A stretch of 24,630 nucleotides of DNA from a virus (taxonomy: Duplodnaviria > Heunggongvirae > Uroviricota > Caudoviricetes). Below, in pieces: positions 2,540 to 23,367 of this stretch (position 1 is the stretch's first letter; each line of letters opens with the position of its first letter). The stretch is taken from IMG/VR virus record IMGVR_UViG_2923318301_000004. One strand, given 5' to 3'. The notes under the pieces were generated by a model. That model made no database searches, was not told the origin of the DNA, and worked only from the letters and a program-made list of their open reading frames with translations. The translations under genes and the position numbers were made by a program.

Positions 2540-4543
2540 ATGATTATGAGTGAAAATGATACAATCCCAAAGAAGTCTACAAGTCAGATTAACAAAGCGG
2601 TATTCTTTACATCTGCTTTGCTAATTTTCCTTCTTGTCGCCTTTGCCGCCGTATTCCCGGATGTCGCCGACAAAAATTTTAAACTACTTCAGCAACAAAT
2701 CTTCACGAATGCCAGCTGGTTCTACATCCTTGCTGTGGCCCTGATTTTACTGAGTGTCACGTTCCTTGGACTCTCACGCTACGGTGATATCAAGCTGGGC
2801 CCGGACCATGCGCAGCCTGATTTCAGCTACCACTCCTGGTTTGCGATGCTTTTTTCGGCAGGGATGGGGATCGGCCTGATGTTCTTTGGCGTTGCCGAAC
2901 CTGTAATGCATTATCTTTCGCCACCCGTTGGCACTCCAGAAACCGTTGCGGCAGCTAAGGAAGCAATGCGTCTGACCTTTTTCCACTGGGGACTGCACGC
3001 ATGGGCAATTTATGCCATTGTGGCGCTGATTCTGGCGTTCTTCAGTTACCGTCACGGTCTGCCTTTAACTCTGCGCTCCGCACTCTATCCCATTATTGGC
3101 GATCGCATATACGGACCTGTAGGACATGCGGTTGATATTTTCGCTGTTATAGGCACGGTCTTTGGCGTTGCGACATCACTGGGTTACGGTGTTTTGCAGG
3201 TGAATGCCGGTTTGAACCATCTTTTCGGGGTGCCCATCAATGAAACGGTGCAGGTAATTCTGATCGTGGTCATCACGGGGTTAGCGACGATTTCAGTGGT
3301 GTCCGGTCTGGATAAGGGAATACGTATCCTGTCTGAACTCAATCTGGGTCTGGCTTTGTTGCTCCTGGCGCTGGTCCTGTGTCTGGGACCAACCGTGCTT
3401 CTGCTGAAGTCATTTGTGGAAAATACGGGCGGTTATCTTTCGGAACTGGTGAGTAAAACGTTCAACCTTTACGCGTATGAGCCCAAGTCGAGCAACTGGC
3501 TGGGGGGCTGGACATTACTGTACTGGGGATGGTGGCTTTCATGGTCGCCGTTTGTGGGGATGTTCATCGCACGGGTCTCCCGCGGGCGAACCATTCGCGA
3601 GTTTGTCACCGGCGTGCTGTTTGTTCCCGCGGGTTTTACGCTAATGTGGATGACGGTGTTTGGTAACAGCGCGATCTATCTCATTATGAACCAGGGGGCC
3701 ACAGACCTCGCCAATACTGTTCAGCAGGATGTGGCGCTGGCCCTGTTTAATTTCCTGGAGCATTTCCCGTTCTCTTCTGTGCTGTCATTCATTGCAATGG
3801 CGATGGTCATCGTCTTCTTTGTAACGTCTGCTGATTCGGGGGCAATGGTTGTGGATACTCTGGCATCAGGTGGAGTGGCAAACACACCCGTCTGGCAGCG
3901 AATATTCTGGGCCTCGCTCATGGGCATTGTTGCAATTGCGCTTCTCCTTGCCGGAGGGCTAAGTGCGCTGCAAACGGTGACAATAGCGAGTGCATTGCCC
4001 TTCTCAGTGATCTTACTAATATCTATATACGGACTTTTAAAAGCTTTGCGCCGGGATTTGACCAAGCGTGAAAGCCTGAGCATGGCGACAATTGCTCCTA
4101 CGGCTGCACGTAACCCAATTCCTTGGCAGAGAAGGTTACGCAATATCGCGTATCTGCCGAAGCGATCTCTTGTGAAACGTTTTATGGACGACGTTATCCA
4201 GCCTGCCATGACGCTGGTTCAGGAGGAACTGAACAAGCAGGGGACGATAAGCCACATTAGTGATGCAGTCGACGATCGTATTCGTCTTGAAGTCGATTTG
4301 GGCAACGAGCTGAATTTTATATATGAAGTGAGGCTTCGCGGGTATATCTCACCGACCTTCGCGCTCGCCGCAATGGATAATGATGAGCAGCAGACTGAAC
4401 AACATCGATATTATCGCGCTGAGGTTTATCTCAAAGAAGGCGGTCAAAATTATGATGTGATGGGCTGGAACCAGGAACAGCTGATTAATGACATACTGGA
4501 CCAGTACGAAAAACACCTGCACTTCCTGCACCTGGTTCGTTAA
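2540..4543 (+). CDS. BCCT-family (betaine/carnitine/choline) transporter, BetT-like with a long C-terminal cytoplasmic extension
   Basis: 667-aa ORF with many hydrophobic segments and BCCT signature stretches (WTLLYWGWWLSWSPFVGMFIARVSRGRTIREF; SADSGAMVVD); overall collinear with E. coli BetT as I recall it, including the roughly 170-aa hydrophilic tail. Confidence 0.85.
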   Translation: MIMSENDTIPKKSTSQINKAVFFTSALLIFLLVAFAAVFPDVADKNFKLLQQQIFTNASWFYILAVALILLSVTFLGLSRYGDIKLGPDHAQPDFSYHSWFAMLFSAGMGIGLMFFGVAEPVMHYLSPPVGTPETVAAAKEAMRLTFFHWGLHAWAIYAIVALILAFFSYRHGLPLTLRSALYPIIGDRIYGPVGHAVDIFAVIGTVFGVATSLGYGVLQVNAGLNHLFGVPINETVQVILIVVITGLATISVVSGLDKGIRILSELNLGLALLLLALVLCLGPTVLLLKSFVENTGGYLSELVSKTFNLYAYEPKSSNWLGGWTLLYWGWWLSWSPFVGMFIARVSRGRTIREFVTGVLFVPAGFTLMWMTVFGNSAIYLIMNQGATDLANTVQQDVALALFNFLEHFPFSSVLSFIAMAMVIVFFVTSADSGAMVVDTLASGGVANTPVWQRIFWASLMGIVAIALLLAGGLSALQTVTIASALPFSVILLISIYGLLKALRRDLTKRESLSMATIAPTAARNPIPWQRRLRNIAYLPKRSLVKRFMDDVIQPAMTLVQEELNKQGTISHISDAVDDRIRLEVDLGNELNFIYEVRLRGYISPTFALAAMDNDEQQTEQHRYYRAEVYLKEGGQNYDVMGWNQEQLINDILDQYEKHLHFLHLVR

Positions 4544-4605
4544 TAGCAACATGCCGTCCTGGGGGCGGCAATTATTATCCCGGCCGCAATATGAGGGAAT
4601 GCAGA

Positions 4606-5883
4606 ATGATTTCACGCTGGAAATGGATGCTGAAGCAGACAATTAAAAAACTATGGTTCAGGGCAACGTTATTCGCAATTGTCGCGATAATAACGGCCCT
4701 TTTATCAATTCTTTTTAAATCAATGATACCTGAGTCGGTTTCCGTGAAGGTTGGTGCGGAAGCAGTCGATAACATTCTGAACATACTGGCATCGAGTATG
4801 CTGGCAGTGACCACATTTTCGCTGAGTATCATGGTCACAGCCTACGGTTCAGCCACTACTAATGTGACTCCCAGAGCTACGCGTTTAGTTGTTGAAGACG
4901 TCACCACACAAAATGTACTGGCCACCTTCATCGGTTCTTTTCTCTTCAGTCTGGTAGGGATTATTGCCCTCAATATGGGAGCTTATGGAGAAAGGGGGAG
5001 AGTCATTTTATTCATTGTCACACTGGTTGTCATTGCCTTAATCCTCATCACATTGCTTCGCTGGATACAGCATTTGACCTCTCTGGGGAGGGTTGGTGAG
5101 ACAACGGCACAAGTAGAACAGGCGGCCATCGAAACATTTATTGCGAGAGCAAGAAATCCCTGTCTCGGTGGATATCCATGGCTTGAGAACAATGAACAGC
5201 CGAAAGGAACGGTTGCAGTTTATCCGAAGAAGATTGGCTATGTTGAATATATTGATATGGTGAAACTTAGCAAGCTGCTGACCAATGATCCCCGTCATGT
5301 ATACCTCGTGGCGCAGCCAGGCAGTTTCATACATCCGTCCATGCCAGTTTTGTACCTGAGTCAGGGCCAGGAGTCGTCAATCAACACCGATTTACTTGAG
5401 ACGATTATTGTCTCGGATGCACGTTCATTTGCTCAGGATCCTCGATTTTGTCTTAGCGTCATGGCCGAAATAGCCTGCCGGGCCCTTTCCCCTGCAGTGA
5501 ACGATCCTGGAACCGCCATTGATGTCATTGGCAGAGGTGTTCGTATACTTTCCACTTACGCGCAGAATAAATCTGATGAAATAGAAGTGAAATATCCTTC
5601 AGTACATGTTGCACCACTTCAGAATAACGATCTACTGGAAGACTTTTTCTCACCTGTCGCGCGCGATGGTGCCAGTATGAGGGAGATTCAGATAAGAGTC
5701 CTTAAAGGACTGTCGATGCTGAGTAAAGGTTGGCCTGAGATATTTGCTGAAGCCGCACATACCCTGGCATTTGAAACATTAGAGCATGCAACTCGTGCTG
5801 ACCATATAGATTCTGATAGATATCTAATAAAATCAACTTATTATAATTTATTTAGTGGCGAATATTCTAATAAAAAAACATAG
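4606..5883 (+). CDS. Membrane protein, DUF2254-like (function unknown)
   Basis: ORF with N-terminal transmembrane segments and a soluble C-terminal domain. Start placed at ATG 4606 (MISRWKW...) because GAGGGA lies 7 nt upstream; the six-frame track starts 15 nt earlier at 4591. The DUF2254 assignment is from memory of the family and is uncertain. Confidence 0.55.
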   Translation: MISRWKWMLKQTIKKLWFRATLFAIVAIITALLSILFKSMIPESVSVKVGAEAVDNILNILASSMLAVTTFSLSIMVTAYGSATTNVTPRATRLVVEDVTTQNVLATFIGSFLFSLVGIIALNMGAYGERGRVILFIVTLVVIALILITLLRWIQHLTSLGRVGETTAQVEQAAIETFIARARNPCLGGYPWLENNEQPKGTVAVYPKKIGYVEYIDMVKLSKLLTNDPRHVYLVAQPGSFIHPSMPVLYLSQGQESSINTDLLETIIVSDARSFAQDPRFCLSVMAEIACRALSPAVNDPGTAIDVIGRGVRILSTYAQNKSDEIEVKYPSVHVAPLQNNDLLEDFFSPVARDGASMREIQIRVLKGLSMLSKGWPEIFAEAAHTLAFETLEHATRADHIDSDRYLIKSTYYNLFSGEYSNKKT

Positions 5884-6162
5884 CTGCAGAGCAAGCAATT
5901 CGGTTGTTGGCAAGTCAAGGGCAAAGCATTCGCGTGAGAATGGGCGTATGCTTTGTGCCAAAAGCAAACGTTGCTAATTCTGCACTGTTCAGCGATGGCG
6001 CAGTAGAGACAGGCACTGCCACTGTCCAGTCGGCAAAAGCGAACACTTTGCCACTGCGGGGATAAACTGATTGAAGCTCTCGCGCAAAATCACTTATTCT
6101 TTTGCGTTAATAAAATGTAGGAGATGGGTCATTGATCCTACCCACGTAATATGGACACAGGC

Positions 6163-7029
6163 CTAAGCGAGGTTCTTGTTTTCAAATTGTTCCGGACTGA
6201 GGCCGCCACACCAACTGTGCCGCCGCCACCGATTGTAATCACATTCGATATAATTAAACACCGTTGCCCGCATTATTTCCCGGCTGATAAAGTGTTCTCC
6301 ATGGATACATTCCACTTTCAGCGAATGAAAGAAGCTTTCCACGCAGGCATTATCGTAGCAGCAACCTTTTGCGCTCATACTTCCACGCAGATTATGCCGC
6401 TTCAGTTGCGCCTGATAATCTGCTGAACAGTACTGGCCTCCACGGTCCGTGTGAACGATAACGTTCCGGGGCCTCTTACGCCGCCACAGCGCCATCTGCA
6501 GGGCATCGCAGGCCAGTTGCGCCGTCATGCGTGGCGACATTGACCAGCCAATAACGGCACGTGACCACAGGTCAATGACCACTGCCAGATACAGCCAGCC
6601 TTCATCTGTACGTAAGTACGTGATGTCTCCTGCCCACTTCTGGTTCGGGCCACTGGCGTAAAAATCCTGCTCCAACAGATTTTCTGACACAGGCAGGCCG
6701 TGTGCGCGGTAGCTGACCGGGCTGAACTTCCGGGAGGCCTTTGCCCTCAGTCCCTGACGGCGCAGGCTTGCCGCCACGGTTTTTACGTTAAAGGGGTAAC
6801 CCTGAGCACGCAGTTCATCCGTCAGGCGTGGGGCACCGTAACGCTGTTTTGACCGGGTAAAAGCCGCGAGGACAACGCTGTCGCAGTGTTGGCGGAACTG
6901 CTGACGCGTGCTTATCCTTGTCCGCCGCTGACACCACGTATACCAGCCGCTGCGGGCCACCCGGAGCACGCGGCACATTGCTTTGATGCTGAACTCAGCC
7001 TGATGTTTTTCAATAAAGACATACTTCAT
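6163..7029 (-). CDS. insF: IS3 OrfB (InsF) DDE transposase
   Basis: 288-aa [35 protein letters not shown]...; DDE motif region WAGDITY...HTDRGGQY...[12 protein letters not shown]. Confidence 0.9.
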
Positions 7030-7325
7030 TTCAGGCGCTTCGCGAAGTATGTCGCGGCCTTTTGGAGGATAGCCAGCTCTTCATCCCGTTCTGCCAGCTG
7101 GCGTTTGAGACGTGCAATCTCGGTAGACATCTCCAGTTCACGTTCAGAAGACGTCTGCTGATTTTGCTGTTTACTGCGCCAGTTGTAGAGTTGTGATTCA
7201 TACAGGCTGAGTTCACGGGCTGCGGCAGTAACACCGATGCGTTCAGCAAGCTTCAGGGCTTCACTGCGAAATTCAGGCGAATGCTGTTTACGGGGTTTTT
7301 TACTGGTTGATACTGTTTTTGTCAT
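7026..7325 (-). CDS. insE: IS3 OrfA (InsE)
   Basis: [54 protein letters not shown]...; start taken at the internal Met (MTKTV) rather than the ORF-track Met three codons upstream; overlaps insF by 4 nt (frameshift window). Confidence 0.88.
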
Positions 7326-7391
7326 GTGAGTCACCTCTGACTGAGAGTTTACTCACTTAGCCGCGTGTCCACTATTGCTGGGTAAGATCAC

Positions 7392-8451
<1,060 letters not shown>

Positions 8452-8455
<4 letters not shown>

Positions 8456-8869
8456 TGCCACTGCTGGATAAGCTGCGTGAGCAGTACGGGGTCGGACCGC
8501 TATGCAGCGAACTGCATATTGCCCCGTCAACGTATTACCACTGTCAGCAACAGCGACATCATCCGGATAAACGCAGTGCCCGTGCGCAGCGCGATGACTG
8601 GCTGAAGAAAGAGATACAGCGCGTATACGATGAAAATCACAAGGTATACGGTGTGCGTAAAGTCTGGCGTCAGTTGTTACGGGAAGGTATCAGAGTGGCC
8701 AGATGCACTGTGGCACGTCTCATGGCGGTTATGGGACTTGCCGGTGTTCTCCGGGGTAAAAAGGTCCGTACGACCATCAGCCGGAAAGCCGTTGCCGCAG
8801 GCGACCGCGTAAACCGTCAGTTCGTGGCAGAACGACCTGACCAGCTGTGGGTGGCTGATTTTACTTACG
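8452..8869 (+). pseudogene. IS629 OrfB transposase, 5' exon (interrupted by group II intron)
   Basis: [34 protein letters not shown]...QLWVADFTY then diverges at the intron 5' end (GTGTG at 8870). Confidence 0.8.
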
Positions 8870-9540
8870 GTGTGCCCGGAGTTCAGGGCGGGCATGGATG
8901 CTTAAATGAACCGCGAGTCTGTCTGGAATATTGAGCCGGTAACTCACGATGAGAAACCCAACAATCCCACCGGGTGTGACGGTGGAGAACCTGAGCGGCA
9001 GTGACCTGCGGCATGCCCGCAGGGTGATGTAACCCGCTGACAACGGGGATTGAGGCGAGATCACTAAGCCGAGATGATCCTCAAGGTTAAGTACTGAAAG
9101 GCTGAAGAACATGAACCCGTTAATCCGCCTCTGTGGGTTGAAAACGTCACCACGGCCTACGTGATCTGACAGGCCGTGCAGGAGGAACTGGCAGTGATAC
9201 GTAAGCACTGCCGGTCGAAGGTGTTTTGACATGTATGCGAAACACCGGGGCAGCAGCGTCTATCACGCTTGCGTTGCTGACTTCTGCCAACTTGCGGCAA
9301 GCAAGGATAAAGAGTGCGACGGGCAGCCTCCTCAGTATGCCTGAGTCCAGGCAGGTAAACCGGGGAAGGTCAGCGACGGATGTTAAGGGGGCATGGCTCC
9401 GATGACGCGCTGGCTGGCGGAGCTTCCGTAGTAGTCCGCGATGGGGAAAGCCCATTACATGGCGAAGGGAAGCAGTTTGAATGTGTTTGCGACGTGAATT
9501 AACTGACCTAACGAGGTGAAGACCTTTGATAATCAGCGAA

Positions 9541-11049
9541 ATGCAACGCAAGCTTGCCACATGGGCAGTCACCGATCCGTCCCTACGGATTCAACGGCTG
9601 CTGCGTCTGATAACACAACCAGAATGGCTGGCTGAAGCGGCGCGGATCACGCTTTCATCAAAGGGGGCCCATACCCCCGGCGTTGATGGCGTGAACAAAA
9701 CAATGCTACAGGCCAGACTGGCTGTTGAGCTGCAAATCCTCAGGGATGAATTACTCTCAGGCCACTACCAGCCCTTGCCCGCCAGACGGGTTTACATCCC
9801 TAAAAGCAACGGCAAACTGCGACCACTGGGTATCCCCGCGTTGCGGGATCGTATTGTTCAGCGGGCCATGCTGATGGCGATGGAGCCGATATGGGAGAGT
9901 GATTTTCATACGCTCTCATATGGCTTCCGGCCTGAGCGCAGTGTCCACCACGCGATCCGCACGGTGAAATTACAGCTCACAGACTGTGGTGAAACCCGGG
10001 GACGCTGGGTGATTGAAGGCGACCTGTCCAGTTACTTCGACACCGTACATCATCGACTGCTGATGAAGGCTGTACGCCGCAGGATCAGTGACGCACGTTT
10101 CATGACTCTGCTGTGGAAAACCATCAAGGCGGGACATATCGATGTCGGTCTCTTTCGGGCGGCCAGTGAAGGTGTGCCACAGGGCGGTGTTATATCGCCG
10201 CTATTATCGAACATCATGCTGAATGAGTTCGATCAATACCTGCATGAGCGCTACCTGAGCGGGAAAGCCAGAAAAGATCGGTGGTACTGGAATAACAGTA
10301 TCCAACGGGGCCGAAGTACGGCGGTCAGAGAAAACTGGCAGTGGAAACCCGCGGTGGCGTACTGCCGCTATGCCGATGATTTTGTCCTCATCGTCAAAGG
10401 CACCAAAGCACAGGCGGAAGCCATCAGGGAGGAGTGTCGGGGTGTGCTCGAAGGCAGTCTGAAACTCAGGCTGAACATGGATAAGACTAAAATCACCCAT
10501 GTTAATGACGGCTTTATCTTTCTGGGGCACAGGATCATTCGCAAACGCAGTCGTTATGGCGAGATGCGAGTGGTCTCAACGATCCCGCAGGAGAAAGCCA
10601 GAAACTTCGCCGCATCGCTGACAGCACTGTTATCAGGCAACTACAGTGAAAGCAAAGTCGATATGGCTGAACAACTCAACCGAAAACTGAAAGGCTGGGC
10701 CATGTTCTATCAGTTCGTTGATTTTAAGGCCAAAGTCTTCAGTTATATCGACCGTGTCGTGTTCTGGAAGCTGGCTCACTGGCTGGCCCGCAAATACCGT
10801 ACAGGTATCGCTTCCCTGATGAGGTGGTGGTGTAAATCACCGAAACCGGGTCAGAGCAAAACGTGGGTTTTATTTGGTAAAACCAATCACGGCAAGCTCA
10901 GCGGCGAAATACTGTACCGGTTGGTGGGGCAAGGCAAGAAGCTGTTCCGCTGGCGGCTACCCGAAGGTAATCCCTATCTGAGGACGGAGACCAGAAACAC
11001 GTATACATCGCGCTTTACAGAAGTGGCAATGGCGTTCGCCAGCATTTAA
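9541..11049 (+). CDS. Group II intron-encoded protein (reverse transcriptase/maturase)
   Basis: RT motifs in order (RPLGIPALRDRIVQ; SYGFRPERS; YCRYADDFVLIV) followed by a maturase (X) domain; start assigned to the first ATG (MQRKLATW...) rather than the TTG at 9526 used by the ORF track. Confidence 0.85.
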   Translation: MQRKLATWAVTDPSLRIQRLLRLITQPEWLAEAARITLSSKGAHTPGVDGVNKTMLQARLAVELQILRDELLSGHYQPLPARRVYIPKSNGKLRPLGIPALRDRIVQRAMLMAMEPIWESDFHTLSYGFRPERSVHHAIRTVKLQLTDCGETRGRWVIEGDLSSYFDTVHHRLLMKAVRRRISDARFMTLLWKTIKAGHIDVGLFRAASEGVPQGGVISPLLSNIMLNEFDQYLHERYLSGKARKDRWYWNNSIQRGRSTAVRENWQWKPAVAYCRYADDFVLIVKGTKAQAEAIREECRGVLEGSLKLRLNMDKTKITHVNDGFIFLGHRIIRKRSRYGEMRVVSTIPQEKARNFAASLTALLSGNYSESKVDMAEQLNRKLKGWAMFYQFVDFKAKVFSYIDRVVFWKLAHWLARKYRTGIASLMRWWCKSPKPGQSKTWVLFGKTNHGKLSGEILYRLVGQGKKLFRWRLPEGNPYLRTETRNTYTSRFTEVAMAFASI

Positions 11050-11053
11050 ATGG

Positions 11054-11087
11054 AGAGCCGGATGCGCTGAAAGGTGCACGTCCGGTT
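11054..11087 (+). ncRNA. Group II intron domain V (catalytic hairpin)
   Basis: GAGCCGGATGCGCTGAAAGGTGCACGTCCGGTTC: about 34 nt, AGC triad near the 5' end, 2-nt bulge, GAAA tetraloop, immediately after the IEP stop codon and about 50 nt from the intron 3' end. Confidence 0.65.
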
Positions 11088-11111
11088 CGGGGAGGAGAGG
11101 CAGGGAAATAG

Positions 11112-11612
<501 letters not shown>

Positions 11613-11654
11613 GTTCACAGATAAAACACTCTCCAGGAAACCCGGGGCGGTTCA

Positions 11655-12792
11655 CTCATCTGCCGCTCTACCGCATCCCTCGACCATAATCCCGACTCAA
11701 TCAACGAACTACAAGCCATCGTCCTGAAGCCATGCCCACAAACCTCGACCTTCGTGTCATACCCCATTACGCGCAAAGCCTTGTTCACCGTATTCTCACT
11801 CATCGGCTTACGTGGATCGTGATCGCCCACAAAAATCAGCTCTCAATTTCCGCTCATGCTTTTGATCTTTTCCAAAATACTTAGGGCCTGCCGCGACAAA
11901 GGTACAAGGTGTGGTGTCCGCATCTTCGAGCCACGCTGAGAATGCTTGACTCCTTCCAGTTGCTCACGCTCACCTGGGATTGTCCACATAGCCGTTTCAA
12001 AATCTACTTCTGACCAGCGGGCAAAATGCAGCTCGCTCGAACGGATGAAAACCAATAAAGTGAGTTCAACCGCCAGCCGAGTTAACGGTCTGCCAGAATA
12101 GTGATCTATGCGATGAAGTAATTCAGGTATACGGTTCAGTTCAAGAGCTGCACGGTGCTGTCTTTTCGCCGTAGCAACCGCACCTGCAATCTCTTGCGCG
12201 GGGTTGTAGTCGATTAAGCCGCTCTGAACGGCAAAGCGCATAATCGCGGTAGTACGCTGCTGTAAACGGGCGGCAACTTCGAGCCGCCCGGATGACTCGA
12301 CTGCTTTAATGGGTACAAGAAGATCCCGCGTCTTCAGTTCCGCAATGTTCCGCTTACCGATAGCAGTAAAGAGATTATCCTCCAGACTTTTCAAAACACG
12401 AGCGCTATGCGATGCCGACCACTTCTGATTGCTGGCGTGCCAGTCTCTGGCGACTACTTCAACGTTATCGCCTCTTGTTCCTGTTCTACCTTAACAGCTT
12501 TCTTGTTTTCACTGGGATCGACACCATTAGCTAAAAGCTTACGAGCCTCATCCCGGCGTGCCCTGGCATCCGCCAACGACACTTCGGGGTATTTCCCCAA
12601 TGCCAGCATCTTCTCTTTACCGCCAAAGCGATAACGTAGCCGCCAGTATTTGGAGCCGTTAGGGTGAACCAGCAAAACCATGCCTTCACCGTCGGTCAGC
12701 TTATAGGCTTTTGCTTCAGGCTTAGCCGAACGAACCTTCACATCACTCAGAGCCATGATGAGTATCCTTTCAAGGGTTCTGTGTGGGTACAA
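11655..12792 (-). pseudogene. P4-type tyrosine integrase pseudogene (frameshifted, C-terminus removed by IS629)
   Basis: Three consecutive minus-strand ORF pieces (12454-12792 N-terminus MALSDVKVRSAKPEAKAYKLTDGEGMVLLVHPNGSKYWRLRYRF...; 11843-12394; 11615-11830) together cover a P4-like integrase but in different frames; the last piece abuts the IS629 end. Confidence 0.8.
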
Positions 12793-13210: not shown

Positions 13211-14143
13211 TTAAATTTCATATTTTGAAATTTCGCTGATTACATCATCCCCATATTTCTTAATCATGGAGGCAAAGAATTTATGTTCAATAAATTTCGC
13301 ATAGCCTAATTCTCCTTTAAGGGTTAGAATTTCTTTCTCAGATAAAACCCCACACACATAATAATGTATTTTACTTCTTAAAAGACGCTTTCTATCACGA
13401 CCTAAAGACAAATAACCATCAGTCGTAATAGTTACACCAGTTACATGTCTATTAAACTTCCTTGAGGTAAAAACTGTTTTCTCATGGTTTATTTTAATAT
13501 TCCTAAGATTTACTACGTTAAGAACTTCCCTTACTAACTTAGGAACATCAAATAAAGCTCCTTTGACTTTGGTGCTAAACGTAAGATCATCAGCATACCT
13601 TGAGTAGGTAATACCCAAATCCTTGCATCTTTTCGATATTTCCTCATCGAAGAAATACATTACTGTATTTGAAATAATGGGAGAAGAAGGTGCTCCAACA
13701 CTTAGGCGTAACGGGCTATTTCTTCTTAACTTCCAGAAGAAAAGATTTTTAAGAACAAAGATATCAGTATCAGTTAGTTCAACGCCATAATCTTTTAAGA
13801 CAGATAAAAGATTATGGGGTTTGATACTCATAAAAAAGTTTTTAAAATCCATTTTAAGCAAATAATCATTATTACAATGCATTAACGCATTAGATCTAAT
13901 ACTTTTATCGGCTTCATAAGCGAAAGCATTTTCATGAACTTTCAAATTAGCCAACATATGATTGATTACTACCTTCTGTAAGGCTTTAACTTGCCTAGCT
14001 GGTTGTGCAATTAATCTATATCCATTACCATTTCTTTTGGCGATAGGATAAATTTTATATCTGCGTGGAATAGTAACAATATACCTTTTAGCCTCTTCTT
14101 CGCTAAGAAAAAGACCTTTTGAAATATAACTTAGCAACTCCAT
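13211..14143 (-). CDS. Retron-type reverse transcriptase
   Basis: About 310 aa, RT domain only (no maturase or endonuclease); motifs SNALMH (NAxxH), FKNFF, VGAPSSP, YSRYADDLTFS (YADD) and NRHVTGVTI (retron VTG); start ATG lies 1 nt after the upstream effector stop (TAGaATG); collinear with Ec86 RT as I recall it. Confidence 0.85.
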   Translation of the reverse strand: MELLSYISKGLFLSEEEAKRYIVTIPRRYKIYPIAKRNGNGYRLIAQPARQVKALQKVVINHMLANLKVHENAFAYEADKSIRSNALMHCNNDYLLKMDFKNFFMSIKPHNLLSVLKDYGVELTDTDIFVLKNLFFWKLRRNSPLRLSVGAPSSPIISNTVMYFFDEEISKRCKDLGITYSRYADDLTFSTKVKGALFDVPKLVREVLNVVNLRNIKINHEKTVFTSRKFNRHVTGVTITTDGYLSLGRDRKRLLRSKIHYYVCGVLSEKEILTLKGELGYAKFIEHKFFASMIKKYGDDVISEISKYEI

Positions 14144-14144
14144 T

Positions 14145-15131
14145 CTAAGCCCCTCCACGCACGATATTGATTTGATTTAGAGCATTTTTCCTTTTTTTTG
14201 CAGTCTCGTCCATATCTTTAGCATCCATACTTAAGTAAGATTGTCGGATTGCAACCTTAATATTCATAGAATCCTTTATTTTACCACTAGCACTGATACC
14301 AAATTTAAGTTTACTCTCTCTATGCCCTCGGGAATAGAAGTAGTCTGTACCACTGTAAGATAATGATGAGGTTAATTTCATCTTTTCAAGCAAATAAAGT
14401 AAACGAGTTATTATTTTTTGTGGCACATCTATATCCATACAGTATAGTGCCCACTCTATTTCGCTTTTCTTGATTGGTTCTGATAAAAGGATTATTTCGT
14501 AAATCAATATAGCTAGGTGCCCAGTATTTTCAGGGTTATATCGCTCCGTTTTTTTTACACGTTTTAATCTAGAATGAATATCATGGTAGATAAGCTCAAC
14601 CTCATCATATTTCATACGATCCGATTTTGGCCATGGATAAACTGATACTGAGGCCTCATCTATTTTTTTAAGATACTCCAAAGGGCCTAAATATATAAAA
14701 GAAGATCTAGCAGGAATATTTTTTCGTTCATTTCCCTCAATCTCCTCAAATGGTGCGACTACATGCAATTTTTGAGCTAGAGACTTCCTATTAACAAATA
14801 ATCCAAGCTCAACTAACGAACCTGCACTTTCTAAACAGATAACAACTAATGTTGAAATATTTGCAATATCATCTTCAAAGCTCATTAGATCTGAATATGC
14901 CCCCTCTCTGAAGTAGTCATGGAAGTTCTCAGCTAAAATAAGAGAATCTGACAATTCAGGTTTGTGGCCTGCTACATAAGTAAATATGTGGTCTCGTACA
15001 CTCATTGGAGTGGAATTTATCGGCCCACCACAAACAAAAATAATAGGAGGCATGAACTGAACAGTGAAATTTGAATATTTCAAATCTCCAAACTGCTCTT
15101 GTAATGCATTCATATATGCAGAATCACTCAC
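14145..15131 (-). CDS. Retron effector, putative nucleoside 2-deoxyribosyltransferase-like (NDT) domain plus C-terminal putative DNA-binding domain
   Basis: 328-aa ORF between the structured non-coding region and the RT; N-terminal region PPIIFVCGGPI...ICLESAGSLVELGLF resembles the Rossmann-like NDT fold with a candidate catalytic Glu; likely GTG start at 15131 with AGGGGGT as RBS (alternative ATG at 15113). AT-rich codon usage like the RT. Confidence 0.6.
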   Translation of the reverse strand: MSDSAYMNALQEQFGDLKYSNFTVQFMPPIIFVCGGPINSTPMSVRDHIFTYVAGHKPELSDSLILAENFHDYFREGAYSDLMSFEDDIANISTLVVICLESAGSLVELGLFVNRKSLAQKLHVVAPFEEIEGNERKNIPARSSFIYLGPLEYLKKIDEASVSVYPWPKSDRMKYDEVELIYHDIHSRLKRVKKTERYNPENTGHLAILIYEIILLSEPIKKSEIEWALYCMDIDVPQKIITRLLYLLEKMKLTSSLSYSGTDYFYSRGHRESKLKFGISASGKIKDSMNIKVAIRQSYLSMDAKDMDETAKKRKNALNQINIVRGGA

Positions 15132-15758: not shown

Positions 15759-16040
15759 TCAGACAGGAATCTGCTGACGGCTTGACAGTTTTGACGCGGA
15801 GCCATAGCGATTGAGCGTTTTCTGTTGTTTTTCCGGGGATTGTGCTTTGTCTGATAGCTGTTCATTGCGCCGGGGTTTCATGATTATCTTATCCACACTC
15901 TCCAGTGCCGTAAATGTGCAGGAACATTCCAGATTCTGGCACTGATACCACGAGCGTTTAACTGACGGAGCTTCATAGGCTGCTGTTCTGGCGTGTGCAA
16001 CTGTACCGCATTCCGGACATTTAAGTGCCATTAATATCAC
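15759..16040 (-). CDS. ogr: Ogr/Delta-family zinc-finger late-gene transcriptional activator
   Basis: ALKCPECGTVAHARTAAYEAPSVKRSWYQCQNLECSCTFTALESVDKIIMKP has the CxxC-(22)-CxxxxC pattern and spacing of P2 Ogr/P4 Delta; start may be the internal Met at 16031. Confidence 0.8.
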   Translation of the reverse strand: MILMALKCPECGTVAHARTAAYEAPSVKRSWYQCQNLECSCTFTALESVDKIIMKPRRNEQLSDKAQSPEKQQKTLNRYGSASKLSSRQQIPV

Positions 16041-16588
16041 TCCTGTATATCGTTAATGTCATTCAGGCGTTGCTGAAAACGCAGATGTTGTGCCGGGGTG
16101 TAAGAACCCTGGCAATCACGAATCATCCCGGGGTCAGGCATCAAACCGGATTCATCCAGGATCTCACGATAATCCCCGGCAATTTCAGGCGGTGTTATTG
16201 CCAGCTGGCGAACCAGAGCACTGCGTAATATACGGGACGCAACGTCAACCCCTCCGCGCCCCTTCAGGAACGGAGCCAGTGCAGATGTCAGGGCTGCCCC
16301 ATTCGCCTGCATAAAATTGCTGAGAGCGGCTTCTGTGCAGGCCTCCATCAGTAAATGCTGCGAGTAAATGCATTCGCGCGCAGCACAGTTAATTTGCCAT
16401 TTCAGCACATCCAGACGTTCCCGCAGTAATTCGAGCTGTCGGGCATAATCTGCTGGTTTTTCTGTGGCAGCGAGGAGAGATGTTATCTGTTGTTCAACGG
16501 CTTTTCGGCTCTCATTATGTCCGGCCCACAGAATACGGGCATTCCGAAAACTGGTAAGTGCCTGGTCAGGCGTGCCTCGGGCCGTCAT
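16037..16588 (-). CDS. psu: Psu-like protein (P4 polarity suppression / capsid decoration)
   Basis: 183 aa; segments LELLRERLDVLKWQINCAARECIYSQHLL, FMQANGAALTSALAPFL and YTPAQHLRF resemble P4 Psu as I recall it; start overlaps the sid stop. Confidence 0.65.
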   Translation of the reverse strand: MTARGTPDQALTSFRNARILWAGHNESRKAVEQQITSLLAATEKPADYARQLELLRERLDVLKWQINCAARECIYSQHLLMEACTEAALSNFMQANGAALTSALAPFLKGRGGVDVASRILRSALVRQLAITPPEIAGDYREILDESGLMPDPGMIRDCQGSYTPAQHLRFQQRLNDINDIQE

Positions 16589-17328
16589 ACTGCTTTCTCC
16601 TTCTCAGCAAGTTCCTGACGAACCTTAATTTTATGCATAGCTGCCGGAGAGAGTTGATTACTGAAATCCAGACGCGCCGCATAATCCGGGGCAACTCCCG
16701 CCAGTTTAAACACCGGGTCCTGCTCAGGCATCGCATCGTTAGCCAGAGCCGGTCTGGTGATATGTTTATGAATAAAGTCTTTCAGCACTGTGTCCGGGTC
16801 ATTAACTGAATTCACCACACCCACAACGGCACTGGCTTCCCGGCCCATTGTGGATTTAAGCAGGCTCAGCGTCTGAATAAGCGCTTTTCCATGCGACTGC
16901 ATAAAATCCTCCCAGATTTGTTTTGCGCGAATATCCACAAGAATGTTATGCGCGTGGATATACTTTCCGGCTAATTCTGCAGCTTTCTGCGGCAAAAGTG
17001 CATTTTCGCTTTCCTGAGCCGCCAGCAGCTCATCAAAATCCTCAAGCGTTTCTCGTCCCAGCGCAATTTCCGTGCGCAGTTTTTTCATTTCCTTTGAGAC
17101 CACGCCCTGACTTTCACGAAACAGCGTGCGCCACTCCTCATTCAGTGTGTTCGTCGTGGCTTCCATTTCAGCGCGACGCTGGCGGATTGTCGCAATATTA
17201 TCCGCTGCCGCTTTCTGCTGACGACGTGCTTCAAGCCATGCGTTTCTGGCTGTGTTCATGGTTTCCAGTGCCCGCTGCGTTACAGCCGGAAAAGTGGAAA
17301 GGTTGTTATTCACTGCGGTGTTGTTCAT
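16585..17328 (-). CDS. sid: Sid-like protein (P4 capsid size determination external scaffold)
   Basis: 247 aa, strongly helical and charged; EWRTLFRESQGVVSKEMKKLR and position directly upstream of psu match P4 Sid as I recall it. Family call rests mainly on gene context. Confidence 0.55.
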   Translation of the reverse strand: MNNTAVNNNLSTFPAVTQRALETMNTARNAWLEARRQQKAAADNIATIRQRRAEMEATTNTLNEEWRTLFRESQGVVSKEMKKLRTEIALGRETLEDFDELLAAQESENALLPQKAAELAGKYIHAHNILVDIRAKQIWEDFMQSHGKALIQTLSLLKSTMGREASAVVGVVNSVNDPDTVLKDFIHKHITRPALANDAMPEQDPVFKLAGVAPDYAARLDFSNQLSPAAMHKIKVRQELAEKEKAV

Positions 17329-17506
17329 GACTTCTCCTGTCGGGTTGGTTCGTTACGTCAATTGTGTCGTGGCTGACACAAGCACACTATCGGTGCTCAG
17401 TGTGTGGTGGCTGGCACAACGGACGCTTGCGGTTATTCAGACGTGGCTATGAAAGCCAGCCAGATAAAAATGCCCTCTGTTTCAGTCTGCTTTATGTCCC
17501 TGATGC

Positions 17507-17694
17507 GGTGGAACAGGTGAAACATGTGTTACAGCTTTGTTTTATAAGGCATTTATATACACTGCACCGGTGGAACATCGCGGGTAACAAGGTGGAACAG
17601 CGGATTGGCTGGCGTTACATCTGTTCCACCTCACTATTTCAGAAGGTGGAACAGGTTCAGCCCTGTAAAATACGGTTGTTCCACCTGTTTCACC
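17507..17694. repeat. Iteron cluster: 8 copies of TGTTCCACC / GGTGGAACA (two are TGTTTCACC variants) in both orientations
   Basis: Copies at 17507, 17516, 17569, 17591, 17622, 17646, 17677, 17686; in the non-coding gap between the alpha-like primase gene and sid; closely resembles the TGTTCACC octamers of P4 ori/crr that are bound by alpha. Confidence 0.6.
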
Positions 17695-17728
17695 TGTTAC
17701 CCTTAATAAATAAGACTCACGCAAAGCC

Positions 17729-20401
17729 TTAACCCGGCACCTCGCTGTTGAAGACATAGAGCCTGCGGGGATTCATCTCTGGCGGGCGAATGGTTGTCTG
17801 GAGTTTGCCATCAGTGGAGGGCAGCAGGTATCCACGATCTGCGCACAGACGCGCCACCTTGCGCGGGTCAAATCCCCTGCAGATTTCTTTCCAGCCGGAC
17901 GGCATGACATAGAACGTAGTGACAGCTTCCGTGCCCTGCGCGGTACTGCCTTTCTCCACCCTGCGCCAGCCCACCATATTGCCGGGGCGGTTGCGCTCGT
18001 CATACCAGTCTGCAAAGCGGCTGTACTGATTCGCGGTAAAGAAACTGCGAACCTGCTCCAGTGCGGCGATATCTTCCTGATTGGCGGTGTGCCCGCGATC
18101 TTTCAGCCATGCGTTCAGGCAGACGCGGGTTGCCCGCAGTGCTTCACCCTCAGGCCAGCCGGTGATACCCAGACGGGTTGCCAGTTCACCTGCCATCGCC
18201 ACCAGAGCAAAGCGGTTCACAGCCCGGCCCACCTGATTGCCTGCATCTTTCGGAGTCAGGGCGGCAGCATATTCCTTCATCAGCGATTTTGCCTGTGCCG
18301 TTAGTCCGTTAAGATCAGCGGTCAGTGCTTTCAGCCACTCCCGGAACGGCGAACCGTAGTAGCAGGACGTGGCCCATTCAAGATGCTCTGCCAGAGCCTT
18401 GCCGCTGTCGAAGCCGTGCAGCTCCTCAAAAACGCCAAACTTCCCGGAATCGCTGGGGATCTGGATCATCCTGACTTCCATCCCGGCAAAAGTACGCTCA
18501 CCGGCCTTTGCCGCATGTTCGGTCAGAGACAACTCGCCAGTTGAAAAGAACAACAGGCGCCAATGCTTACGGGTACGCAGCTCACCGTCCGTACCGGCAC
18601 GGCCCTTGCCCTGACCGTTTGCCAGCATGTAGGCGATATTGCCTGCCTCGCGTCCGTCAACTTCCCGGATCTCATCAAGCATCATGGCGGCATCGTTGCG
18701 GCGGCTGGCGCATCCCTCCAGCGCGTTGCCGGTGGCCCGCCATGTCTGCCAGTAGTCAGGCCCGCCGCAGACGGAGGTTGCCGCTTTCATGGTGGTGGTC
18801 TTACCGTCTGTCGATTCCCCTTTGAGGTGGTAGCCGCCGCCGTCCATACCAACCAGCCGTAACAGTGGTGCAGCAAAGGCCAGGCTGACAGCAAATGCCA
18901 CGCGGGAGTTGCCGGTACAGTAGCGGGATACATGCTCCCGCCATTCCTCTGTTGTGCCCGACACGCGGAAATCACGCCCCTGCACGGAAGTGGTCTGGAG
19001 AATGACACCCTCTGCACCTTCACCGCTGACCTCATCCTGCAGGACGTAAACCTGACCATGCCAGCCAGTACGACTGACGCAGGTCACGCGGCGTTCCGGT
19101 TTACACAGTGAGATATATTCCATCAGGCGTGCGCGTGCCTCACCGGTGGTGCTGATATAAGACAGCCCGTTAACCAGCAATACCCGGCGCAGTTCCTCAC
19201 CACTGCCGCTCAGCATTTCCATCGGCATCGCCCAGCGGCGACACTCACCCCACGTATCTTCCCATTCCAGCAGTCGTCCGAAGTTACCGCCATCGGCATC
19301 GCAGGTGATTGCCGTCACGCGCAGCGGGCTGCATATTTTGACGTTCTGGATCTCCGTCTCACCGTTGCGCTGTACCTGCTTTTCATACCAGAGATATTCC
19401 TGGGTAAGACGGAACCCGTGCGGCAGTTGCGTGCGGCCCTCCCCGCACAGCACCAGACCGTTACGAAAGGCTTCACGGGCGCGGGTAATACCGTGCTCCC
19501 GATGGAAGTCATTCCAGTCGGCCTTAATCTCTCCCGGTGGCAGCGTCATCCAGCCGCCAACAGCTTTTGCCGCCCGTTCAGCAAAGGCTCTGCCGGGATT
19601 CTCACCCCCGTCCTGAAAATCGTTATCACCGGCGATGATAATTTTTACCTCAGGCCAGCGTGCCCGCAGCGACTGCGCCACATTGGGCAGGTTGCCCGCA
19701 GATATGGCAGCCACTACGCATCCGGCAGTGAGCTGACTTACCGTCAGCGCCGTAGCGTAACCTTCGGTAATCACCACCTGTACCGGTGGTTCAGACGGTA
19801 ACGGGCTGAGCGACACAAACGCGCCTTTCATCGTGCTGCCGGGCAGTATGCTTTTTTCACCCGTCGGGGCGATAAGCTGTGCACCAGTCACGGCTCCGGT
19901 GTTGGTCGTGAGTGGTAACAGCAGGGAACCGGCAGGAAAATCCTTACCGCTGATATGCTGCACGCTTCCGGTCAGAGAGGCCGGGTATCCGGCGAACCCT
20001 TTTCCTGTCAGATAGGCGCTTTCTCCCGTGTGGCTCTCTTTCATCAGCGCCGCCACGGTAAGACCCATGTCGCGTTTAGGGGCTTTTTTTCTGGCAGGCT
20101 TAACAGGCAGTTCCTGCACATCCGGCACATTAAGCACCTGCGCCACCTCCTGCGCAGCCTTTCTGACGCTGTAACCGGTTACGAGCTTAACCAGATCCAG
20201 ACCGTCACCATTGCCACACTGGCTGCAGATCCACGTCCCGCGCCCGTCAAGGTCATCAAGGCGAAAACGATCCTTGCCCCCACATTTCGGGCAGGGACCG
20301 TGCCTGCCGTTTTCAGGTACATCAATACGCAGCATCTGGAGAATAACGGGCCATTTCCCCCGTGCGGCGGCTGAAATCTGCGTAACCGTCTGTATTGTCA
20401 T
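17729..20401 (-). CDS. P4 alpha-like primase-helicase (zinc-binding N-terminus, TOPRIM primase, C-terminal P-loop helicase)
   Basis: 890 aa; CPKCGGKDRFRLDD...WICSQCG zinc ribbon; TOPRIM-like VVITEGYATALT...IIAGDNDFQDGGENPG; Walker A GESTDGKTT. Confidence 0.85.
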   Translation of the reverse strand: MTIQTVTQISAAARGKWPVILQMLRIDVPENGRHGPCPKCGGKDRFRLDDLDGRGTWICSQCGNGDGLDLVKLVTGYSVRKAAQEVAQVLNVPDVQELPVKPARKKAPKRDMGLTVAALMKESHTGESAYLTGKGFAGYPASLTGSVQHISGKDFPAGSLLLPLTTNTGAVTGAQLIAPTGEKSILPGSTMKGAFVSLSPLPSEPPVQVVITEGYATALTVSQLTAGCVVAAISAGNLPNVAQSLRARWPEVKIIIAGDNDFQDGGENPGRAFAERAAKAVGGWMTLPPGEIKADWNDFHREHGITRAREAFRNGLVLCGEGRTQLPHGFRLTQEYLWYEKQVQRNGETEIQNVKICSPLRVTAITCDADGGNFGRLLEWEDTWGECRRWAMPMEMLSGSGEELRRVLLVNGLSYISTTGEARARLMEYISLCKPERRVTCVSRTGWHGQVYVLQDEVSGEGAEGVILQTTSVQGRDFRVSGTTEEWREHVSRYCTGNSRVAFAVSLAFAAPLLRLVGMDGGGYHLKGESTDGKTTTMKAATSVCGGPDYWQTWRATGNALEGCASRRNDAAMMLDEIREVDGREAGNIAYMLANGQGKGRAGTDGELRTRKHWRLLFFSTGELSLTEHAAKAGERTFAGMEVRMIQIPSDSGKFGVFEELHGFDSGKALAEHLEWATSCYYGSPFREWLKALTADLNGLTAQAKSLMKEYAAALTPKDAGNQVGRAVNRFALVAMAGELATRLGITGWPEGEALRATRVCLNAWLKDRGHTANQEDIAALEQVRSFFTANQYSRFADWYDERNRPGNMVGWRRVEKGSTAQGTEAVTTFYVMPSGWKEICRGFDPRKVARLCADRGYLLPSTDGKLQTTIRPPEMNPRRLYVFNSEVPG

Positions 20402-20781
20402 ACTTCCCCCTGATACAACGTCACACCGGTACTGCAGAAGTCATCAAAGGCCGCCGGAAGCGTGCGGTACATCTCCGCCATCACTTCACAGCCGCGCGCG
20501 GTCAGTACCGGCGGCGCGGTCAGCAGTGACGGCTCCAGCATGTCAGTCAGCAGTGCCAGCGCGGCAGCGGCGCCCTGTGCTTCGCCGTACTCGTTAATCA
20601 GTACGCACTCGATATGCAGCGCAATGGCCATTTCAATACGCTCCACCGTCAGGCTGTGCGGACCATACTGATCACTGCCAGTTTCGTTCAGCATTTTCTG
20701 CCGCCATGCTGAAGCAATAGCCCGCCGGTAAAGCGCGGTGGTCATTTCTGCCGGGAAAATGGAAACCTGCGGCTGGTTCAT
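20398..20781 (-). CDS. Hypothetical protein (P4-like left-operon gene preceding alpha)
   Basis: 127-aa ORF whose stop overlaps the alpha start (ATGA); position corresponds to the epsilon/orf151 region of P4; no motif recognised. Confidence 0.45.
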   Translation of the reverse strand: MNQPQVSIFPAEMTTALYRRAIASAWRQKMLNETGSDQYGPHSLTVERIEMAIALHIECVLINEYGEAQGAAAALALLTDMLEPSLLTAPPVLTARGCEVMAEMYRTLPAAFDDFCSTGVTLYQGEV

Positions 20782-21062
20782 CTGGCACCTCCTTCAATCA
20801 GTGCGCAGCTGTGTGCAATATCCGTCAAATCTGCCAGCAGGTACTCCATCAGCGCGGCGACACCATGCGCACAGCCAGCGTCCAGTGCTCCGGCCTGAGA
20901 CGGGTATTCAGAAAAGAGAAGCTGGAGCATGTCGCAGGCATTTCTTGCGCGGGTCAGTTTTCCGAAACTGTCCTCTGACAACCCATAGGCAAAAGCACCG
21001 GTATTGTGTTTTTCAGGCAAAGTGTGGCCCTGAGCACCGTTGTGCCCGTTTGAAATATTCAT
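20778..21062 (-). CDS. Hypothetical protein
   Basis: 94-aa ORF, 4-nt overlap with the downstream ORF (translational coupling); no motif recognised. Confidence 0.4.
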   Translation of the reverse strand: MNISNGHNGAQGHTLPEKHNTGAFAYGLSEDSFGKLTRARNACDMLQLLFSEYPSQAGALDAGCAHGVAALMEYLLADLTDIAHSCALIEGGAR

Positions 21063-21093
21063 CGTGGATTACTCCGTTTTCAGCGGTATTTTG

Positions 21094-21453
21094 TCAGAGA
21101 AACTTTGAATAGTGACCGTCGTCAGGCTCAGCAGAACGCCGTATGCTACGCTCCCGCCAGCGGATAAATAGCACAGACGGATGCAGTGTCAGCGGGCCGG
21201 AACCACTACCGCCAGCAGGAGCTGGTGCAGGCTTCAAGAGCGGTACATCAAACAGGCGCGTATACCGCTGTTCAAACCATGCCAGAGGGCAGGAAGAAAG
21301 CTGGTTGTCGCTGTCATGACGTATCAGCACTTCACAGCTGAATTCAGGATTAACCAGCGCCACAGAGGGCGAGGCTTCTATTAATCGGATAATCGTGACC
21401 GTCCAGCCACGTTCATGCTGCCAGCGTTCGCCGGGGTGCGGATAATTACGCAT
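21094..21453 (-). CDS. Hypothetical protein
   Basis: Start taken at ATG 21453 (MRNYPHPGERW...), which overlaps the stop of the upstream small ORF (ATGCGTAA); the ORF track begins 10 codons earlier. Confidence 0.4.
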   Translation of the reverse strand: MRNYPHPGERWQHERGWTVTIIRLIEASPSVALVNPEFSCEVLIRHDSDNQLSSCPLAWFEQRYTRLFDVPLLKPAPAPAGGSGSGPLTLHPSVLFIRWRERSIRRSAEPDDGHYSKFL

Positions 21454-21622
21454 GTTCACCTCCGCAGGGAATGCGCCCGGCAAAGCTCAGTACATAGTCC
21501 GGGGCAAGTCTGCGCCGCGCTGACCGCTCGTTATCTGCGGTGATCCTTAACATCACAGGACGGGCATTGCGTTGACTGCGGTTGATCGCCGCAAATAACC
21601 AGGTACACTTCTGTTTAGCCAT
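21446..21622 (-). CDS. Hypothetical small protein (58 aa), first gene of the alpha operon
   Basis: ATG at 21622 preceded by GAGGTAACGAAG; this frame is the 3' part of a longer 244-aa ORF on the track that I consider spurious upstream of this start. Confidence 0.4.
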   Translation of the reverse strand: MAKQKCTWLFAAINRSQRNARPVMLRITADNERSARRRLAPDYVLSFAGRIPCGGEHA

Positions 21623-21695
21623 CTTCGTTACCTCATTTAGCGGATTGGTCAGAAGCCCGGTTAGTGTTGCTGCACTGTCGGGCTTCGCACTCACA

Positions 21696-21793
21696 AGGTG
21701 AATCGCACCTTTAATTTTAAAGCTACCCTTAAGTGAATCGCACTTCAAGCTTTTTATTATCATTTTTTTTGCATATACTGAATCGCACCTAAC
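21696..21793. promoter_or_regulatory. Divergent promoter region with three copies of the near-palindromic motif (G)TGAATCGCAC(C)
   Basis: TGAATCGCAC at 21699, 21734 and 21779; the third copy sits between a TATACT -10-like hexamer (21774-21779) and the RBS of the plus-strand small gene. Confidence 0.45.
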
Positions 21794-21809
21794 GCGAGGA
21801 GATCCAGTA

Positions 21810-21995
21810 ATGGCAACGAGTTCAACTAACAACAAGTCGCAGCAACTTAATGCTCGTTTCCCACATGATGTAGTTGCAGAATTAGAAAGCAACCTTGAAG
21901 ATGGAGAAACGAAAGCGCAATTCATTGTTACGGCTGTAAAAGGCGAGATTAAACGCCGACAGCGCAGGAAAAATAAGCCAGAGCAAGGTAGTTGA
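21810..21995 (+). CDS. Small putative DNA-binding regulator (61 aa), divergent from the alpha operon
   Basis: ATG with AGGAGA RBS 7 nt upstream; basic C-terminal tail (KGEIKRRQRRKNK); possible ribbon-helix-helix. Function inferred only from size, charge and position. Confidence 0.45.
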   Translation: MATSSTNNKSQQLNARFPHDVVAELESNLEDGETKAQFIVTAVKGEIKRRQRRKNKPEQGS

Positions 21996-22057
21996 ATAGA
22001 GAAGCCAACAGACGTTCTCTCTGTTTCCATGTTAATTTCAGTAAGCGACAATATTTT

Positions 22058-22091
22058 TAAGCCCACAAATTCATTATGTCGGGCTTTTTTA
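22058..22091 (+). terminator. Putative intrinsic terminator after the 61-aa gene
   Basis: AAGCCC...(16-nt loop)...GGGCTT followed by TTTTATT; the loop is long, so this is tentative. Confidence 0.35.
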
Positions 22092-22322
22092 TTAGTGATT
22101 TTCATATCGCTCACCACGAGAGGCATATATTTGCTCTTGAATCCAGTGATCCACTTCGCTTTCAACAAATGAAATTGCACGAGTTCCTATTTTCACCGGA
22201 CGGGGAAATGTATTGTTTGCAAGCTGTTTGTAAAGCCATGCCTTGCTACGCTGAACGCGTCTTAAGACCTCTTTTGCTGAGATAAGAGTCTGATTATCTG
22301 AAAAGCTGTTTGCATATTCCAT
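22092..22322 (-). CDS. alpA: AlpA/Vis-family phage regulatory protein (excisionase-like winged HTH)
   Basis: MEYANSFSDNQTLISAKEVLRRVQRSKAWLYKQLANNTFPRPVKIGTRAISFVESEVDHWIQEQ matches the AlpA/P4 Vis pattern; start placed at ATG 22322 (GGAGT RBS 8 nt upstream) rather than the track's 22367. Confidence 0.7.
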   Translation of the reverse strand: MEYANSFSDNQTLISAKEVLRRVQRSKAWLYKQLANNTFPRPVKIGTRAISFVESEVDHWIQEQIYASRGERYENH

Positions 22323-22699
22323 CTTGTTACTCCGTGTTCTACTTAAGTTCACGGTGACTTTAAACACTGGGAAAAAGTGATTCTAGTGATAATGGAATCT
22401 ATTAAGACAAATATTGATTCTATTGAAAAACAATAATCTCCACTGAAAAAAGAAGTAATATTCATATGAAAGAACACGGAGAGAAGGAAATGCACAAAAA
22501 AAAACAAAATCAATAGAATTCATATGGATAGGATGGAAAATCAAAAAATCATATGTCAAAAGGTATTATTGCATTTTAACGATTCATATTACCTAGGAAT
22601 TAGCACAGTATTACACCATATTACATCGTATTACCCCCTATAGCCCGTTAGAGCCTCTTGTGGCCCTTCTATTGAGAGATAGCCAGAAAATTAATAAAT

Positions 22700-23338: not shown

Positions 23339-23367
23339 TTAAATCTCTCCGCAGCCCCCAATGGTAA

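Follow-up and report, generated by a model that had tools for sequence, protein, structure and literature searches.

The window, i.e., the 24,630-nucleotide stretch of DNA analyzed here, contains the 5′ part of an AcuR-type TetR gene (acuR′) lying between two insertion sequences, with a complete IS3 element on its upstream side and a remnant of IS100 (IS21 family) on its 3′ side. The gene sits in a mosaic E. coli genomic island. In related genomes, the gene order is a shf-like deacetylase gene, capU, virK, lpxM, an IS3-family element, a BCCT transporter gene, a DUF2254 gene, and acuR, the last of which is followed by IS debris adjoining a degraded integrase gene and tRNA-Leu. The succession from BCCT transporter to DUF2254 membrane protein to acuR is found in the window (2540-5883) as well as in L002 (2847-7376), a locus that carries a full-length acuR gene. 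This arrangement appears to be what is left of a cluster for uptake and detoxification of the acrylate/DMSP type. No adjacent acuI was found in L002, and because only two short alcohol dehydrogenase fragments follow its acuR gene, the whole acrylate-type cluster looks decayed in E. coli. The features around the insertion are as follows.

5884-6129, + strand: native acuR upstream region, from the DUF2254 stop codon to the insertion, with weak promoter-like hexamers (lenient scan)
6120-6124, + strand: native Shine-Dalgarno sequence GGAGA, now 1,261 bp further from the start codon
6130-6132: left CAT of the target-site duplication, read from the sequence
6133-7390, − strand: complete IS3 (1258 bp), with its right end (IRR) at 6133 and its left end (IRL) at 7390
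6133-6171: IRR of IS3, inverted repeat pair with IRL (39 nt, 72% complementary)
6163-7029, − strand: orfB (insF, 288 aa), catalytic transposase part
6214-6209 (TTGGTG) and 6189-6184 (CAATTT), − strand: published outward promoter hexamers, located in the window
7026-7325, − strand: orfA (insE, 99 aa), from the ORF list, coordinates transferred from K-12 insE1
7352-7390: IRL of IS3, directly adjoining the acuR′ start codon
7391-7393: right CAT of the target-site duplication, whose A and T open the start codon
7392-7595, + strand: acuR′, the first 68 codons of an AcuR-type TetR gene of 218 codons, which make up its helix-turn-helix part (base-by-base comparison with L002 acuR)
7595-8026, − strand: IS100 remnant, with an intact terminus at 7595/7596 and its other side lost
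7596-7610, + strand: IS100-supplied tail of four foreign codons and a stop, closing a 72-aa ORF
7661-8026, − strand: 3′ part of istB, within the IS100 remnant

The remainder of the window is also rich in mobile DNA. At its beginning, an IS1 (about 144-910) parts the opening 143 nt of capU (1-143 of the window, corresponding to 321-463 of L001, the record of strain STO_Bone1B) from sequence that starts at position 3212 of L001. About 2.7 kb present in related genomes, comprising the rest of capU, virK, and lpxM/msbB2, is missing here, which looks like an IS1-associated deletion. Beyond the IS100 remnant, an IS629-type element (8075-11660) is split by a group II intron; its orfA lies at 8129-8455 and its ALIL frameshift pseudoknot at 8410-8526 (Rfam, 120 bits), while the intron comprises a reverse transcriptase/maturase gene (9526-11049) and domain V/VI (11053-11139). 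Strain AR435 carries a second, inverted copy of this IS629-type/intron arrangement. Further along, the − strand encodes a retron St85-type defense pair (13211-15131), made up of a reverse transcriptase (13211-14158; 333.8 bits, cut-off 235) and its effector (14145-15131; 223.7 bits, cut-off 100). The end of the window is occupied, also on the − strand, by a P4-like or satellite-like integrative element (16037-24630) with an integrase-domain protein (23368-24630; 270.7 bits, under the model cut-off of 434), an Icd-like cell-division inhibitor domain (21446-22180), and an 890-aa helicase-like protein (17729-20401); several of its ORFs had no family match. ARAGORN detected no tRNA gene in the window.

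Identity and insertion site of the IS3 element

A target-site duplication of 3 bp is typical of IS3. The element of the window is 100% identical to E. coli K-12 MG1655 IS3A across the 1255 bp retained in the K-12 copy, and PGAP, the NCBI annotation pipeline for genomes, labels the corresponding place in a related record (L003) as [quoted passage not shown] The element ends in imperfect terminal inverted repeats, with 5′-TG...CA-3′ ends running from TGATCC... to ...GATCA. The product of orfA matches the N-terminal part of the NCBIfam model transpos_IS3, and that of orfB reaches 339 bits against the same model (cut-off 160). The two frames overlap at CCAAAAGG, within which an A-AAA-G motif read from the sequence constitutes a putative −1 frameshift site. 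Together, the sequence identity, the length of about 1258 bp, the terminal repeats, the two-ORF layout, and the 3-bp duplication identify the element as IS3 itself, complete and apparently intact. Compared to the IS3 copies of K-12 (IS3A-E; insE/insF), the type element of the IS3 family, it has an equal 1258-bp length, the same orfA/orfB layout and −1 frameshift site, and shared 39-nt imperfect terminal repeats and 3-bp duplication, leaving the insertion site as the sole difference.

The first-pass annotation of this DNA had proposed an IS3 insertion accompanied by a CAT duplication at the start codon of a TetR-family gene. The triplet CAT is indeed present on both flanks, with the junctions reading ...AAATGTAGGAGATGGGT-CAT / TGATCCTACCCACG ... 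GCTGGGTAAGATCA / CAT-GACAGGCG..., and removal of IS3 and one CAT joins the flanks into ...GGAGATGGGTCATGACAGG..., the reconstructed empty site. In STO_Bone1B, window positions 6000-6132 and 7394-7500 form one exact string that carries a single CAT. A 638-nt query made from the joined flanks recovered the uninterrupted acuR start region, covered to at least 80% in one piece, in 686 of 5,426 complete E. coli genomes, the match in STO_Bone1B being 100% identical. The uninterrupted orthologous locus that had been named as a check thus exists, with the predicted start codon and upstream sequence. Because the exact empty site exists, we accepted a simple insertion with target duplication.

The acuR′ ATG occupies positions 7392-7394 and consists of A and T from the right CAT followed by the next G. 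The earlier statement that the insertion lies exactly at the start codon holds in that the ATG and the coding sequence behind it are left intact, but IS3 itself ends one base (C 7391) before the ATG. Reading CAT as the complement of ATG is irrelevant, as the start codon merely shares its first two bases with the final two of the duplicated triplet. We also considered whether the target was chosen through likeness to the IS3 ends and rejected this idea: the left flank TGGGTCA shares only TGGGT with the IS3 end, which by eye appears chance-like.

Start codon and native signals of acuR

The full-length ortholog in L002 scored 263.8 bits against NF051457, the NCBIfam equivalog model for the acrylate regulator AcuR, and thus passes its cut-off of 247; a full-length gene is also available from strain WP7-S17-ESBL-04, for example. 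Residue 5 of this protein aligns to profile position 2, and the proposed ATG therefore fits as the true start. The CDS annotated by PGAP begins with this ATG in the 72-aa truncated allele (L001, 8432-8650) as well as in the 218-aa full-length gene (L002, 6432-7088). An in-frame TTG located 60 nt further upstream in the empty site was rejected as a start since it has no Shine-Dalgarno sequence, PGAP picks the ATG, and the alignment to the AcuR profile starts with residue 5.

The joined flanks were correctly described at the outset as a GGAGA ribosome-binding site followed by the ATG of the TetR gene. In the empty site, the native sequence AUGUAGGAGA pairs with the anti-Shine-Dalgarno at −7.3 kcal/mol with a 6-nt spacing, which ranks within the top 4% of random 20-mers drawn from the window. 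The displacement of this site and of the upstream region, estimated at about 1.26 kb, is precisely 1,261 bp. A strict scan of the native upstream region found no promoter there, and its role as the promoter region of acuR is presumptive.

This region contains a perfect 7-nt inverted repeat, CGCAAAA-n10-TTTTGCG (6083-6106), 25 to 48 nt ahead of the native start of acuR, where it overlaps the weak promoter-like hexamers TTGAAG (6071) and TATTCT (6095). In Rhodobacter, the AcuR operator is the inverted repeat TAATAGAC-n6-GTCTATTA (PMC3017554). This operator was not found upstream of E. coli acuR, where the best match reached 9 of 16 positions. CGCAAAA-n10-TTTTGCG could be a candidate local TetR-type operator, unlike that of Rhodobacter AcuR. 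The two genes also differ in their translation signals, the E. coli gene having a good Shine-Dalgarno sequence whereas the Rhodobacter gene is leaderless. Closer to DUF2254, about 40 nt after its stop codon, lies a 12-nt inverted repeat, CAAAGCATTCGC-n10-GCGTATGCTTTG (5922-5955, coordinates transferred from L001 8223-8256), which is 92% complementary, has no T tract, and could represent either a hairpin at the end of a transcript or a repeat element. An Rfam scan of the whole window returned no known RNA element between 5884 and 7700.

Truncation of acuR by IS100

TetR proteins require their C-terminal domain for dimerization and ligand binding. With the exception of one mismatch at 7572, the gene of the window is identical to L002 acuR up to position 7595 (codon 68 of 218), beyond which the two sequences diverge completely. 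Independent IS100 copies in unrelated records start matching exactly at this same position, so that a true IS100 end abuts codon 68, and the 3′ truncation by an IS21-like remnant recognized earlier is borne out. The IstB sequence of the remnant scored 187.5 bits against a whole-protein cut-off of 300 and spans profile positions 161-252 of 253, i.e., the C-terminal part only; PGAP annotates it as "IS100kyp family helper ATPase IstB, incomplete." The IS100 remnant is therefore a fragment and not a functional element.

While the full-length E. coli ortholog passes the AcuR cut-off, the window keeps only 68 of the 218 codons, and its 72-aa product scored 88.5 bits against the cut-off of 247, as a fragment. 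The helix-turn-helix domain is present (residues 5-68, equivalent to AcuR profile positions 2-65); homology stops at codon 68, and the C-terminal ligand-binding/dimerization domain is absent. A BLAST comparison of L002 with the window found none of the remaining acuR sequence elsewhere in it. In RefSeq, the 72-aa product (WP_000145481.1) is annotated as a normal "TetR/AcrR family transcriptional regulator" and not as a pseudogene.

Allele distribution and probable order of the insertions

We then counted the different alleles among the 5,426 complete E. coli genomes. The IS3 left junction is present in 276 genomes, the right junction in 193, and IS3, acuR′, and IS100 are found in one piece in 189, meaning that the allele with IS3 is carried by roughly 190 to 280 genomes of the set, with AR435, M217, and WCHEC005237 among the strains bearing it. 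A gene truncated by IS100 with an uninterrupted start and without IS3 occurs in 40 genomes, and IS3 beside an acuR gene continuing past codon 68 in 0 of the 5,426. Since truncated alleles without IS3 exist and IS3 next to a full-length acuR does not, IS3 most likely struck a gene that was already dead. On the parsimony of these counts, we infer that the order was most likely IS100 first and IS3 second. The listed IS3-bearing genomes match the junction queries at 100% identity, and these identical junctions suggest one insertion event followed by inheritance by descent.

The same IS3 copy was involved in later deletion or recombination in about 80 genomes, as seen from the 276 left versus 193 right junctions. 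In strain 503025 (L004, 7339-7400), for instance, the IS3 left end is intact, but the place of CAT-acuR′ is taken by TTT, an IS1 fragment, and amino-acid antiporter/decarboxylase genes.

The main alternative is the reverse order, in which IS3 first disabled a working full-length acuR by cutting it off from its promoter and Shine-Dalgarno sequence, with truncation by IS100 coming later. Silenced genes decay freely, which makes a later IS100 insertion plausible, and the alleles bearing IS3 (189 to 276 genomes) outnumber the truncated alleles without it. Nonetheless, IS3 accompanies a full-length acuR in none of the genomes, and each of the 40 perfect empty sites would need a precise excision of IS3 together with one CAT, or recombination. 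Although the 40 genomes could in principle stem from precise IS3 excision, we regard the reverse order as quite unlikely. The proposal that the insertion silences the gene consequently stands in part: the start codon was parted from its ribosome-binding site and upstream region, but a working gene was probably not silenced, the target most likely being a 68-codon stump already.

Possible expression of the truncated gene

Charlier et al. (1982) reportedly described IS3 as a mobile promoter that activated argE. The first-pass annotation had left room for rescue of the TetR gene by an IS3 outward promoter. Of the two ends of the element, it is the left one (IRL, upstream of orfA) that adjoins acuR′, and the gene is divergent from the transposase genes. 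An outward-facing promoter, P3R, has been assigned to the right end of IS3 (PMC8860574), and PMC12095673 credits Charlier et al. 1982 with the outward promoter hexamers TTGGTG/CAATTT. In the window, the P3R hexamers read out of the IS3 right end toward lower coordinates, away from acuR′. Compared to IS3 acting as a mobile promoter through P3R, the element and the hexamers are thus the same, while the orientation is wrong for activation. Rescue is therefore unlikely, the known promoter being at the opposite end and pointing away from the gene. The hexamers point instead at the 3′ end of DUF2254 (stop at 5883), so that transcripts leaving IS3 on this side would run antisense to the DUF2254 and BCCT transporter genes; production of such antisense RNA from P3R is a remote possibility.

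We also examined the IS3 left end for other signals. In a previous study, 150-bp segments of the left and right IS3 ends were picked as having no detectable promoter activity in a reporter assay, and single mutations readily created promoters in them (PMC12095673). Between 5850 and 7700, a strict sigma-70 scan gave no hit on the + strand; on the − strand it picked up only two, both within IS3, and shuffled sequences yielded at least as many. A lenient hexamer scan gave only matches of 7 to 8 out of 12 positions, with 8/12 pairs on the + strand in the IS3 left end (7287-7348). Given these weak hexamer pairs, low-level read-out from the left end is possible. As for translation, a new Shine-Dalgarno sequence supplied by the IS3 end was rejected since the 20 nt before the ATG pair with the anti-Shine-Dalgarno at −3.7 kcal/mol at best, which 23% of random 20-mers match or exceed and which is hence no better than chance. 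Fusion of acuR′ to an IS3 reading frame was likewise rejected, as an in-frame TAA lies 9 nt upstream of the start inside IS3. Taking these observations together, we infer that the stump is most likely silent.

It is nevertheless conceivable that the 72-aa stump is still expressed from an IS3 promoter, possibly from a leaderless or nearly leaderless mRNA, and that the resulting small helix-turn-helix peptide has residual activity. The ATG and 68 native codons are intact, PGAP still calls the 72-aa CDS, and the weak 8/12 pairs in the left end have the appropriate strand. In addition, Rhodobacter sphaeroides acuR is translated from a leaderless mRNA (PMC3017554), and single mutations easily give IS3 ends a promoter (PMC12095673). 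However, IS3 has its known outward promoter at the other end, the wild-type left end has no detectable promoter activity (PMC12095673), and the Shine-Dalgarno match at the junction is at chance level. From general knowledge of the TetR family, the missing C-terminal domain would deprive such a peptide of dimerization and ligand binding. We consider an expressed stump highly unlikely. More remote still is a specific form of it, in which the IS3 left end or a mutation would give rise to a leaderless-type mRNA encoding a 72-aa helix-turn-helix peptide that binds the candidate operator at 6083-6106.

Discussion

Very probably, the locus reflects routine IS3 transposition into an already dead genomic-island gene, with an unexpressed stump and an allele inherited by descent. 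According to this scenario, IS100 would have inserted at codon 68 of the 218 codons of acuR and the distal part of the gene would have been lost, with the helix-turn-helix part remaining. Later, IS3 would have transposed in its customary way, through a staggered cut of 3 bp at C-A-T that overlaps the A and T of the start codon; its left end lies against the ATG, and the transposase genes read away from acuR′. The stump retains its ATG, has lost its Shine-Dalgarno sequence along with the whole upstream region, now 1,261 bp away, and most likely yields neither transcript nor protein. The allele would then have been passed on by descent. A chance CAT match, which by itself has a likelihood of 1 in 64, combined with the arrival of IS3 through recombination or deletion, such as the rearrangement of the same IS3 copy in L004 (left end flanked by TTT and unrelated genes) might bring to mind, is already refuted, because excising IS3 and one CAT restores base for base a sequence found in hundreds of genomes, and this empty site settles the question.

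The preferred reading of a routine transposition into a dead gene can be set against classical promoter-proximal or polar IS insertions. In both, the element separates the translation signals from the start codon without altering the coding sequence. In contrast to the classical promoter-proximal mutations, the target here was most likely a truncated pseudogene beforehand, a phenotype is improbable, and the duplicated triplet overlaps the start codon.

The allele itself is ordinary and already known, being present with both features annotated in roughly 190 to 280 public complete genomes, and the new point here is the probable order of events, IS100 and then IS3. A change in phenotype is not expected, given that the target was most likely a pseudogene already and that nothing lies downstream in the acuR′ transcription unit. 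The IS3/CAT junction can serve as a marker for a set of E. coli genomes (left side in 276, right side in 193). The locus also provides a clean case of layered IS decay in a genomic island, with IS100 followed by IS3 beside IS629, a group II intron, and IS1. Finally, the 72-aa CDS annotated as a "TetR/AcrR family transcriptional regulator" in many RefSeq genomes is a gene fragment and not a regulator.
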